Below are positions 12,146 through 15,768 of a DNA stretch of 64,000 nt, piece by piece. Position 1 is the stretch's first letter. Every line of letters starts with the position of its first letter. Source of the stretch: Eledone cirrhosa (taxonomy: Eukaryota); the NCBI GenBank assembly GCA_964016885.1, contig OZ024741.1:352036001-352100000 (forward strand). The letters run 5' to 3'. Below the pieces are notes generated by a model that worked only from the letters and a program-made list of their open reading frames with translations, was not told the DNA's origin and ran no database searches. The position numbers were made by a program, and so were the translations under genes.

Positions 12146-12188
12146 GTAACCTACGCGTTTCATTCTTATTAGAAATCATCAGGATTAC
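12146..12188 (-). ncRNA. Type I hammerhead ribozyme motif (inverted copy)
   Basis: Minus strand reads GUAAUC-CUGAUGA-U-UUCU-AAUA-AGAA-U-GAAA-CGCGUA-GGUUAC. Confidence 0.8.
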
Positions 12189-12457
12189 ATATCCAATGCT
12201 TTTATCGAGAATCTCAAATTGTAATACGTGACATATTCTACTCTATAGCGATTAGGTCTTCAAATGTTTATTATAAACATACAGAATATTTTCGAATATT
12301 CTATGTTTGTCTTCACATATATATCGCTATTTCAGAGCATTAAATCCAAATTCTAATTTCTGCCGGACCGGCTACCGCTCTTTCAAACCAGTTCCTGTAC
12401 ACAGCTAAGTATTCTATAAGTCTCTAGCTGTGTCGTTCTCGATAAAGCATTGGATAT

Positions 12458-12500
12458 GTAATCCTGATGATTTCTTATAAGAATGAAACGCGTAGGTTAC
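12458..12500 (+). ncRNA. Type I hammerhead ribozyme motif
   Basis: GUAAUC (stem I), CUGAUGA at 12464-12470, stem II UUCU/AGAA, GAAA at 12485-12488, palindromic ACGCGU, GUA triplet with predicted cut after 12494, then GGUUAC (stem I'). Stem I extends over 12436-12521. Confidence 0.85.
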
Positions 12501-12991
12501 TTCCCTTGCTTTTGTCGAGAATCTCAAATTGTAATACGTGACGTATTCTATTCTATAGCGATTAGGTCTTCAAAATGTTTATTATAAACATACAGAATAT
12601 TTTCGAATATTCTATGTTTGTCTTCACATATATATCGCTATTTCAGAGCATTAAATCCAAATATATATATATATAAATACATATATATATATATACATAT
12701 ATATATATATATATATATATATAAATATATATATATATAAATATATATATATATATATATAAATATATATATATATAAATATATATAAATATATATATAT
12801 ATATATAAATATATATAAATATATATATATATATATATAAATATATATAAATATATATATATATATATATATATATATATATATATATAAATATATATAT
12901 ATATATATAAATATATATATATATAAAAACAAATAACGAAACAAAATTAAATTTCGTTTCGTTTGTAACTCACTTTTGTATGACTGACGCT

Positions 12992-13446
12992 TAAACAATT
13001 AAGTTAAAGATGTACATCCATATATGTATACTGAAATACTAGTATGTATATGAATACACACACGTATACATATGTAGATGTACCAAGTTTTTTCACTGGT
13101 CACTTTACTGTGAGTGGCCAGCTATTCTGTATGTAAACACACAGACAAACCGGTTTTTAGAGTCATACTGGTTTTTGAGGAAACACCTTTCCTCTATTCT
13201 CCAGAAAGCCAGACAAGGACAAGGTCTGGCTTTCTGGAGAATAGAGGAAAGGTGTTTCCTCAAAAACCAGTATGACTCTAAAAACCGGTTTGTCTGTGTG
13301 TTTACATACAGAATAGCTGGCCACTCACAGTAAAGTGACCAGTGAAAAAACTTGGTACATCTACATATGTATACGTGTGTGTATTCATATACATACTAGT
13401 ATTTCAGTATACATATATGGATGTACATCTTTAACTTAATTGTTTA
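12992..13446. repeat. Fold-back palindrome 2 (223-bp arms, 9-nt loop) of element B
   Basis: 12992-13214 is the reverse complement of 13224-13446 around the loop aaggacaag. No mismatch was seen by eye. Confidence 0.95.
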
Positions 13447-13801
13447 TATATATATATATATATATAAATATATATATATATATAAATATATATATATATA
13501 TAAATATATATATATATATATATATAAATATATATATATATATATATAAATATATATATATATAAATATATATATATATATATAAATATATATATAAATA
13601 TATATATATATATATATATATATATATATATATATATATATATATATAAATATATATATATAAATATATATATATAAATATATATATAAATATATATATA
13701 TATATATATATATATATAAATATATATATAAATATATATATATATATATATATATATATATATATATATATATATATAAATATATATATATATATATAAA
13801 T

Positions 13802-13996
13802 ATCATCATCATCATCAACGTTTTACGTCCGTTCCTCCACGCTAGCATGGGTTAGAACGGGTTGTCCTGTTGTGGGCAGTGTCTGGTCGGCTGACCATGC
13901 CTTGCTCATACAGGAACTGATCTGGCCTGATTTATACAGCTGGATGCCCTTCCTAACACCAACCTCATTTACAGTGAGTGCTGGGTGCTTTTTTTA
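13802..13996 (-). mobile_element. RTE LINE 3'-terminal stub (subfamily 2)
   Basis: Matches the 3' UTR ends at 29808, 43000-43196 (reverse complement) and 55527. (CAT)n tail, inside a TA tract. Confidence 0.9.
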
Positions 13997-14798
13997 TATA
14001 TTATATATAAATATATATATATATATATATAAATAAATATATTATATATATATATATATATATATATATATAAATATATATATAAATATATATATAAATA
14101 TATATATAAATATATATATATATATAAATATATATATATATAAATATATATATATATATATATAAATAATATATATATATATATATATATTTATATATAT
14201 ATATATATATATATAATATATTTATTTATATATATATATATATATATATATTTATATATATATATATATATATATAAATAATATATATATATAAATATAT
14301 ATATATATAAATAAATATATATATATTTATATATATAAATATTTATATATATATATATAAATATATATAAATATATATATATATATATATAAATATATAT
14401 ATATATAAATATATATATATAAATAAATATATATATATTTATATATATAAATATTTATATATATATATATAAATATATATATATATAAATATATATATAT
14501 ATAAATAAATATATATATATTTATATATATAAATATTTATATATATATATATAAATATATATAAATATATATATATATATATATATATAAATATATATAT
14601 ATATATAAATATATATATATATAAATATATATATATATATAAATATATATATATATAAATATATATAAATATATATATATATAGACATAGAATATTCGAA
14701 AATATTCTGTAGTTTATAATAAACATTTTGAAGACCTAATCGCTATAGAATAGAATACGTCACGTATTACAATTAGATTCTCGATAAAAGCAAGGGAA

Positions 14799-14841
14799 GT
14801 AATCTACGCGTTTCATTCTTTTTAGAAATCATCAGGACTAC
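14799..14841 (-). ncRNA. Type I hammerhead ribozyme motif, array copy 1
   Basis: Minus strand GUAGUC-CUGAUGA-U-UUCU-AAAA-AGAA-U-GAAA-CGCGUA-GAUUAC. Closed by a 16-bp inverted repeat spanning 14777-14865. Confidence 0.85.
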
Positions 14842-15106
14842 ATATCCAGTGCTTTTATCGAGAATGACACAGCTAGAGACTTATAGAATACTTAGCTGTG
14901 TACAGGAACTGGTTTGAAAGAGCGGTTGCCGGTCCGCAGAAATTAGAAATTGGAATAAATGCTCTGAAATAGCGATATATATGTGAATATAGACATAGAA
15001 TATTCGAAAATATTCTGTATGTTTATAATAAACATTTGAAGACCTAATCGCTATAGAATAGAATACGTCACGTATTACAATTAGATTCTCGATAAAAGCA
15101 AGGGAA

Positions 15107-15149
15107 GTAATCTACGCGTTTCATTCTTTTTAGAAATCATCAGGACTAC
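15107..15149 (-). ncRNA. Type I hammerhead ribozyme motif, array copy 2
   Basis: Same sequence as copy 1. Confidence 0.85.
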
Positions 15150-15416
15150 ATATCCAGTGCTTTTATCGAGAATGACACAGCTAGAGACTTATAGAATACT
15201 TAGCTGTGTACAGGAACTGGTTTGAAAGAGCGGTTGCCGGTCCGGCAGAAATTAGAAATTGGAATAAATGCTCTGAAATAGCGATATATATGTGAATATA
15301 GACATAGAATATTCGAAAATATTCTGTATGTTTATAATAAACATTTTGAAGACCTAATCGCTATAGAATAGAATACGTCACGTATTACAATTAGATTCTC
15401 GATAAAAGCAAGGGAA

Positions 15417-15459
15417 GTAATCTACGCGTTTCATTCTTTTTAGAAATCATCAGGACTAC
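15417..15459 (-). ncRNA. Type I hammerhead ribozyme motif, array copy 3
   Basis: Same sequence as copy 1. Confidence 0.85.
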
Positions 15460-15725
15460 ATATCCAGTGCTTTTATCGAGAATGACACAGCTAGAGACTT
15501 ATAGAATACTTAGCTGTGTACAGGAACTGGTTTGAAAGAGCGGTTGCCGGTCCGGCAGAAATTAGAAATTGGAATAAATGCTCTGAAATAGCGATATATA
15601 TGTGAATATAGACATAGAATATTCGAAATATTCTGTATGTTTATAATAAACATTTTGAAGACCTAATCGCTATAGAATAGAATACGTCACGTATTACAAT
15701 TAGATTCTCGATAAAAGCAAGGGAA

Positions 15726-15768
15726 GTAATCTACGCGTTTCATTCTTTTTAGAAATCATCAGGACTAC
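15726..15768 (-). ncRNA. Type I hammerhead ribozyme motif, array copy 4
   Basis: Same sequence as copy 1. Confidence 0.85.

Follow-up and report, generated by a model that had tools for sequence, protein, structure and literature searches.

A young 310-nt hammerhead retrozyme of Eledone cirrhosa with fold-keeping inherited variants, likely copied into TA repeats by a Penelope-like reverse transcriptase

The element described here stands closest to two known systems, Penelope-like elements (PLEs) and retrozymes. PLE insertions are characterized by an inverted 5′-truncated copy, a 30–40-nt tail at one end and TA targeting (PMC8557442), and the PAc protein cuts and extends both strands, starting at two internal sites that bound the tail (PMC11167929). 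Rolling-circle copying of retrozyme circles by PLEs is a hypothesis put forward in PMC7229834, and bioRxiv 10.64898/2026.07.22.740005 proposes local satellite expansion, by a mechanism still to be worked out. Here, we analyse six hammerhead motifs in a stretch of 64,000 nucleotides from Eledone cirrhosa (assembly GCA_964016885.1, contig OZ024741.1, positions 352,036,001 to 352,100,000 of the forward strand; hereafter the window) together with their relatives in the 3.0-Gb genome. We hold with considerable confidence that they are type I hammerhead motifs of a young, protein-free 310-nt non-LTR (lacking long terminal repeats) retrozyme, which carries inherited variants that keep the fold, and that a Penelope-like reverse transcriptase (RT) rounding a circular RNA monomer has likely inserted its copies into TA repeats.

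A pattern scan of the window revealed six type I hammerhead-like motifs, one on the forward and five on the reverse strand, with folding z-scores of –6.0 and –6.8. The core CUGANGA...GAAA...UH is complete in every copy. Stem I reads GUAAUC/GGUUAC in two motifs and GUAGUC/GAUUAC in the other four, and loop II is of the AAUA, UAUA or AAAA type, all as described in the original prediction. The motifs are part of tandem 310-nt units with one hammerhead each; monomer positions are counted from the base directly after the GUA cleavage triplet, which is position 1. The unit has 105 G or C among its 310 bases (34% GC), folds as a circle at –67.8 kcal/mol (z –5.1) and contains no open reading frame (ORF), while the frames of at least 120 aa near the arrays are all TA-derived or run through an N gap. 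Tandem units with one hammerhead each, 34% GC and no ORF fit the definition of a non-LTR retrozyme (PMC7229834; bioRxiv 10.64898/2026.07.22.740005). The unit is not an autonomous PLE, as it has no RT plus GIY-YIG ORF.

Genome-wide, the hammerhead core pattern gave 9,563 + 9,303 = 18,866 matches against 15 + 12 = 27 for the reversed control, far more than chance would give; of the 100 matches listed first, one fell outside the 310-nt family. A pattern for the junction of the tail with TA matched the genome 1,347 times, with a few matches counted twice, and near-identical 310-nt arrays are spread across many contigs. A search of Rfam returned no match at the gathering score: the best was Hammerhead_HH9 (RF02275, clan CL00010) with 21.2 bits versus a cut-off of 52, the six window copies scoring 16.6–21.2 bits. 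Hammerhead_HH9 is a different, host-conserved family. Rfam microRNA matches at the E-value level were rejected as fold-back artefacts.

Because the six copies come from two insertions only, they represent two independent haplotypes rather than the three counted originally. Their stem pairs are indeed kept; this is not covariation, since the variants differ by two one-sided wobble changes at two neighbouring, different pairs. Under the measured mutation spectrum a random stem change keeps its pair 23% of the time, which gives p of about 0.05 for two changes both keeping theirs, and the wobble changes among the six copies are ordinary when taken alone. Loop II varies as claimed, with UAUA confined to one of the two copies in one insertion (insertion A, below), so that this difference lies inside a single insertion. 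CUGAUGA, which had been thought invariant, does change genome-wide: N7 is U, A or C, and U10.1 is A in 32 insertions. The selection on RNA structure that had been proposed is not shown by the six copies alone; it is supported by a larger genome-wide sample.

This sample consisted of 201 insertions reached via the tail junction (175 loci) or via whole-unit similarity (26 loci), plus the window's two, and the ribozyme pattern was never a criterion. For the tests we used 178 insertions in which at least 200 positions were covered by at least two monomers; 23 were dropped. Alleles common to an insertion's monomers, and hence present on its template, are termed inherited (61 substitution alleles and two deletion columns). 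Changes in one monomer only, which represent later mutation, RT error or assembly error, are termed private (303 in 408,833 monomer-bases) and provide a neutral control. Private calls of C131T were masked as a junction artefact, and event counts from a maximum-likelihood tree were not used for tests, since the tree misplaces recurrent sites.

The 12 core and four stem III positions hold none of the 61 inherited alleles versus 19 of the 303 private changes (p = 0.028). Of the changes that fall in stems I and II, 9 of 11 inherited and 14 of 60 private ones preserve the pair (p = 0.0004), and the two pair-breaking inherited alleles, G14U and G274A, occur in one insertion each. With A>G removed, pair-breaking alleles are still depleted among inherited changes (2/47 versus 46/281, p = 0.017). 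A true double change, C264-G14 to U-A, is present in three insertions, and eight insertions carry a C inserted after A2, which would replace G-U by G-C with a bulge. Common inherited variation sits at N7, at position 10.1 and at two loop II positions; loop II varies mainly at these 2 of its 6 positions in the sampled insertions, A293 and A296 being invariant, and zero inherited changes were likewise found at internal-loop positions 271–273 and 7, the positions considered for a putative loop I/loop II tertiary contact. A larger sample was what the original prediction had asked for. Predicted stems outside the ribozyme domain gave no signal (pair kept by 3 of 7 inherited versus 23 of 59 private changes, p = 0.57); selection is detected only in the ribozyme domain.

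A comparison across families, based on 34 chosen sequences (10 of the 310-nt family and 24 of sister families), extended this result. In the alignment 89% of cells pair, 14 of 16 pairs change on both sides, and stems I, II and III all covary. Among these changes, C3-G8 alternates with U3-A8, a type of core variant already known for PLE hammerheads (PMC4209133). The covariation score, 0.58, exceeds all 500 shuffles (0.31) and the slid controls (at most 0.13), and RNAalifold recovers the three stems unaided. Stem III is palindromic or nearly so in the sisters, and ACGCGU self-pairs at –9.5 kcal/mol, as expected for dimeric cleavage. We conclude that selection on RNA structure, and not a chance motif, holds in the larger sample; most simply, it acts at the level of the selfish element. 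That an AT-rich tandem repeat should contain such a motif by chance, with no RNA function, is extremely improbable: it would agree with the Rfam result (21 bits versus 52), but not with a complete core, three stems, covariation and the contrast between inherited and private changes.

The sister families are ~70–78% identical, have region 59–235 and the end positions in common with the 310-nt family, and yield 4,011 matches to a sister-specific motif. Older sister retrozymes with units of ~316–322 nt and the same ends lie at L311–L340, L105, L127, L129, L141, L142, L199 and L298; many have the U3-A8 core and a longer palindromic stem III, and at L331–L333 the GAAA core is intact in the outer monomers and reads GAAU in the inner ones. 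Conservation of positions 180–235 (for example, 15188–15243 of the window, reverse strand) across families exceeds that of the ribozyme, and this block, located 3′ of both end sites, may be a protein-binding or promoter element. A different repeat, at L114, L321, L376, L380 and L389, has a nearly alike hammerhead core and stem II, a longer stem III and unrelated flanks; it is possibly a relative or donor of the ribozyme.

Inherited changes comprise 14 A>G and 8 T>C versus 22 and 45 among private ones (p = 0.013), an excess located mainly in stems; outside the ribozyme stems the inherited ratio is 8:8 (p = 0.24). All five low-frequency A>G alleles recur on at least two backgrounds, versus 3 of 12 among the remaining alleles (p = 0.009). 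A276G, which lies in a UAG context, is present in 797 copies; the 100 listed first come from 13 loci on four backgrounds (4, 3, 3 and 3). A259G has 829 copies, in whole arrays, and the 100 listed first represent 8 loci on three backgrounds. At the single control site, the wobble C255T was found in 17 scattered copies versus ~11 expected as private. The all-Watson-Crick stem is present in six of the sampled insertions, G277+A2 in 134, A277+G2 in 37 and both wobbles in none; a single A>G step from the all-Watson-Crick stem would be enough to give either window variant. Genome-wide, the double wobble G277+G2 has two isolated copies versus ~3 expected as private; this rarity fits exclusion and is not proof of it, with ~1 inherited array expected by a rough estimate.

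ADAR prefers sites with no G upstream and a G downstream (PMC8096273). An A-to-G mutation bias of the RNA phase, and not selection, may account for some of the wobble pattern, and, judging from the allele patterns, we put the chances that editing fixed by reverse transcription contributes at about even. Selection tolerating A-U to G-U over G-C to G-U, or template switching, could also give part of the A>G pattern. In the extreme case pair keeping would be mostly mutational, with ADAR converting A to I in A-U pairs, RT fixing it as G, and G-U wobbles accumulating without selection. This would account for the inherited A>G excess, for the recurrence of A>G alleles (A276G and A259G being common and C255T near its private expectation), for the agreement with the ADAR motif preference and for the single step between each window variant and the all-Watson-Crick stem. 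As the sole cause, editing is nevertheless improbable, since it leaves unexplained the empty core, the depletion of pair-breaking alleles that persists without A>G, the C264U/G14A pair and the two-sided covariation between families. In addition, A>G and T>C are balanced outside the ribozyme stems, the control is one site, going from G-C to G-U is more destabilising than going from A-U to G-U, and template switching could spread alleles too.

We then turned to the anatomy of the insertions. Among 162 completely fetched ones, 140 are head-to-head inverted arrays and 22 are one-armed. One arm ends at ~129–139 (the short end, ATATATAT merging with the TA flank) and the other at 163–165 (the tail) in 132 of the 140 two-armed insertions, so that the two outer ends, one per arm, lie 26–36 nt apart; a single insertion of the 140 is tail/tail. 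TA is found on both flanks in 122 of the 140. Since most loci were picked by their TA-flanked tail end, the other flank is the real test of TA targeting. In the subset not picked by the tail, 18 of 21 insertions are short/tail and none is short/short. Arms reach 19 monomers, and both arms have at least two monomers in 60 of the 132. A short end plus a tail end in TA is a Penelope-like insertion footprint; two fixed ends, an inverted copy and a TA target match the published PLE features and make a Penelope-type RT the likely copier. The likely start region of reverse transcription is a module at positions 59–170, also present in the sister families, which consists of a hairpin, the ATATATAT short-end site and the tail (one copy at 15253–15364 of the window, reverse strand).

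Autonomous elements with RT and GIY-YIG in this genome have a hammerhead-like motif followed by two alternative ends in TA, and occur as inverted copies. L372 contains a 938-aa frame with RVT_1, GIY-YIG and a CxxxxCxxC linker, and L380 and L386 each have one long and one short end. One PLE family (L372:1700–7000, L373, L376, L380 and L382) combines the intact 938-aa RT plus GIY-YIG frame with an unusual hammerhead-like core, UUGAAAA, and two 3′ ends ~60 nt apart in TA. A second (L374, L375, L378 and L386) has a CUGAAGA hammerhead and two alternative ends, L386 being an inverted pair. The fetched loci contain 13 long frames, PLE-like or other, and numerous fragments, none of which has the module as its own terminal repeat. 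Two candidate partners were rejected: at L342 the module belongs to a nested sister retrozyme, and the match at L346 is weak (E = 0.0018) and lies outside the PLE.

The distribution of alleles within insertions bears on the form of the template. Both arms are covered for 28 of the 31 alleles that occur in one sampled insertion only, and 26 of the 28 are fixed throughout the two arms, over up to 20 monomers; the remaining two are one deletion. Inner truncation points are scattered over the unit, with 1 of 324 in positions 1–5, the place expected for the end of a cleaved linear RNA (this count leaves out short pieces, and the reference sequence has its break at 166). Longer arrays tend to show less private divergence (rho –0.38, p = 7e-5, n = 103), and 9 of 28 arrays with at least 10 monomers are free of any private change. 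Locus-unique alleles in both arms, the youth of the longest arrays and the absence of a truncation pile-up at the cleavage site together suggest that rolling-circle reverse transcription of a small RNA circle is likely. Our confidence in this circle step is lower than in the reading as a whole.

At L119, the two arms of the insertion both switch to another haplotype close to their outer ends, which suggests template switching. The listing of runs that hold the unit gave no RNA run. In runs X4, X5 and X6, which are of unspecified kind and carry other organism codes, we found one 340-nt contig each of the retrozyme unit (310+30). These contigs are not evidence of a circle, because a collapsed repeat would give the same size as a cycle and contigs drop variants; contamination, collapse and a true circle would all fit them.

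Several points weigh against the reading we prefer. On the side of selection, the core test reaches only p = 0.028, and 2 of the 11 inherited stem alleles break their pair; cross-family covariation rests on a few related families, with a shuffle control that ignores relatedness, and further pair types do not exceed shuffles (26 versus 28.4). The minimum-energy fold does not contain the active core, and stem II most often has a U-U mismatch at its base. On the side of copying, no autonomous partner sharing the module was found among 50 GIY-YIG loci of 10,597 candidates, and terminal repeats differ. Length and age are weakly related when the young lineage is taken by itself (rho –0.21, p = 0.052), and of the longest arrays just a part was fetched. 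Finally, a linear transcript of a homogeneous array would give uniform arms too, PAc PLE insertion in vitro does not need ribozyme cleavage (PMC11167929), and 8 of 9 Xenopus retrozyme dimers were uncleaved in vitro (bioRxiv 10.64898/2026.07.22.740005).

One alternative keeps the element and a Penelope-type enzyme but replaces the circle by a long linear transcript of a homogeneous array that stays uncleaved, with the ribozyme mattering only occasionally. The insertion of unprocessed RNA by PAc in vitro (PMC11167929) agrees with it, and so do the haplotype switches near the outer end of both arms at L119 and L097, which a mixed linear multimer could give; the arms of up to 19 monomers do as well, but source arrays are equally long. 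We consider this alternative unlikely. A new allele in all monomers of both arms, as seen in 26 of 28 cases, needs a single-monomer bottleneck, variants shared in register are uncommon, with 11 polymorphic sites present in both arms over the 166 loci examined, and neither the lack of core changes among inherited alleles nor the lack of a truncation pile-up at the cleavage site would be expected from it.

Alternatively, unequal crossover could have expanded single Penelope terminal repeats locally into satellite arrays, a model already proposed for vertebrate retrozymes (bioRxiv 10.64898/2026.07.22.740005). Periodic shared variants in arms of L102, L222, L233, L241, L248 and L264 do point to some local duplication or to assembly error. 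As a general explanation, local growth appears very improbable. Private changes become fewer as arrays get longer, down to none in the 9 long arrays mentioned above, which speaks for multimers already formed at insertion. In addition, 60 of 132 insertions are multimeric on both sides of the inversion, with fixed outer ends, and near-identical arrays are dispersed over many contigs.

Tandem monomers, inverted arrays, two fixed outer ends, scattered inner truncations, TA flanks, the contrast between inherited and private changes and covariation were observed directly, and from them we infer the following steps for the preferred rolling-circle mechanism. Arrays would be transcribed, and the ribozymes would cleave after GUA, probably as dimers formed through the palindromic stem III. 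A host ligase would circularise the monomer and a PLE protein would bind the conserved module. The Penelope-like RT/GIY-YIG protein would then cut both strands of a TA repeat, and both 3′ ends would prime inside the RNA at the two start sites, each rolling round the circle, after which the two cDNAs would be joined head to head. Some A-to-G wobble variants may be ADAR edits fixed by reverse transcription. If only cleaved and circularised templates found new insertions, selection would be seen on inherited alleles. More tentatively, and with somewhat less than even probability, a Penelope-type dimer may use two fixed sites of a single circular ribozyme RNA to prime both ends of the cut TA repeat, and then roll in both directions, with ADAR edits (A276, A259 and A20) written into the germline and driving stem evolution via G-U wobbles.

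In the window, insertion A spans 12135–12660. Its inverted arm (12135–12212, reverse strand; 78 nt, monomer positions 250 to 17) has its outer end cut off and abuts another fold-back element, and its forward arm (12197–12660; 1.5 units, positions 13–310 and then 1–164) has its tail end next to a TA run. The arms share 16 nt (12197–12212) in the distal stem I inverted repeat. The inverted arm contains a variant 1 hammerhead (A277, G2) with loop II UAAUAA at 12146–12188, its predicted cleavage site falling between 12152 and 12151, and the forward arm a variant 1 hammerhead with an A292U loop change at 12458–12500, with cleavage predicted between 12494 and 12495. The TA microsatellite at the tail end, 12661–12925, is the likely target. 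For insertion B, the likely target is the TA microsatellite at its short end (13445–14683), inside which lies a short interspersed repeat (13802–13993). One arm of insertion B, with 4.2 tandem 310-nt monomers on the reverse strand (14679–15969), merges into TA at its short end and is interrupted by an assembly gap (15970–16169); going by the family anatomy, the gap likely hides the inversion centre and the tail arm. All four hammerheads of this arm are of variant 2: one with G277, A2 and loop II UAAAAA at 14799–14841, and the others at 15107–15149, 15417–15459 and 15726–15768, all on the reverse strand. A whole ribozyme domain, 15395–15483 on the same strand, comprises a 16-bp distal stem I, internal loops, proximal stem I, core, stem II and the palindromic stem III ACGCGU.

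The neighbouring TA-flanked fold-back element has two copies in the window (11716–12133 and ~12925–13446) that resemble each other to ~86%; both are inverted pairs in which one end is longer. The pattern scan found no hammerhead core in either, and the element is possibly another non-autonomous Penelope-type element; its first copy perhaps adjoins insertion A via a deletion at a short common motif. Elsewhere in the window, 1454–11716 is ~10 kb of almost pure TA microsatellite, and many dispersed repeats of the window lie in such runs. Endonuclease/RT frames of the long interspersed nuclear element type, some of them long, are located at 16205–18777, 30240–31908, 40318–42885 and 43973–49872, and a ~630-bp tandem repeat of 4 or 5 copies occupies 50172–53400 (repeated short matches in the tandem-repeat list).

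This young 310-nt family offers a countable footprint that separates models of animal retrozyme spread. It names two likely RT start sites and an RNA module usable for an in vitro test, and the contrast between inherited and private changes is a simple measure of selection on a genomic ribozyme. Should the recurring A-to-G alleles prove to be ADAR edits, circular RNA would make RNA editing heritable, and if both the circle and the editing readings are true, the family would be a genomic record of the retrozyme life cycle.

Like metazoan non-LTR retrozymes (PMC7229834; bioRxiv 10.64898/2026.07.22.740005), the element has ~300-nt low-GC tandem monomers with one type I hammerhead each, no ORF and thousands of copies. 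A short palindromic stem III and a U-U at the stem II base, described separately in two axolotl retrozyme families (PMC7229834), are both found in it. It differs from these retrozymes in forming head-to-head short-end/tail double arrays in TA repeats; expression and cleavage have been demonstrated for some of the published families and are predicted for this one. In PMC7229834 the word 'inverted' occurs 0 times, and in bioRxiv 10.64898/2026.07.22.740005 once, in a reference title. A literature search by title, opening of the abstract and parts of the text, with few subscription papers in its reach, gave no account of inverted short-end/tail retrozyme multimers or of inherited editing in a retrozyme. 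The likeness to Hammerhead_HH9 is weak for all six copies, far below the gathering score. With EN+ PLEs (Neptune-type TA targeting and Poseidon PAc of Anolis; PMC11167929, PMC8557442) the element has in common the inverted 5′-truncated copy, the 30–40-nt tail, two likely RT start sites downstream of a hammerhead, an AT-rich target and, probably, extension of both strands. It differs from them in having no RT/GIY-YIG ORF and no sequence-matched partner among the 50 loci, in the multimeric state of both arms and in the near-obligate pairing of a short end with a tail end. The retrozyme class is thus already known, and the mechanistic evidence provided by this family is unusually direct.

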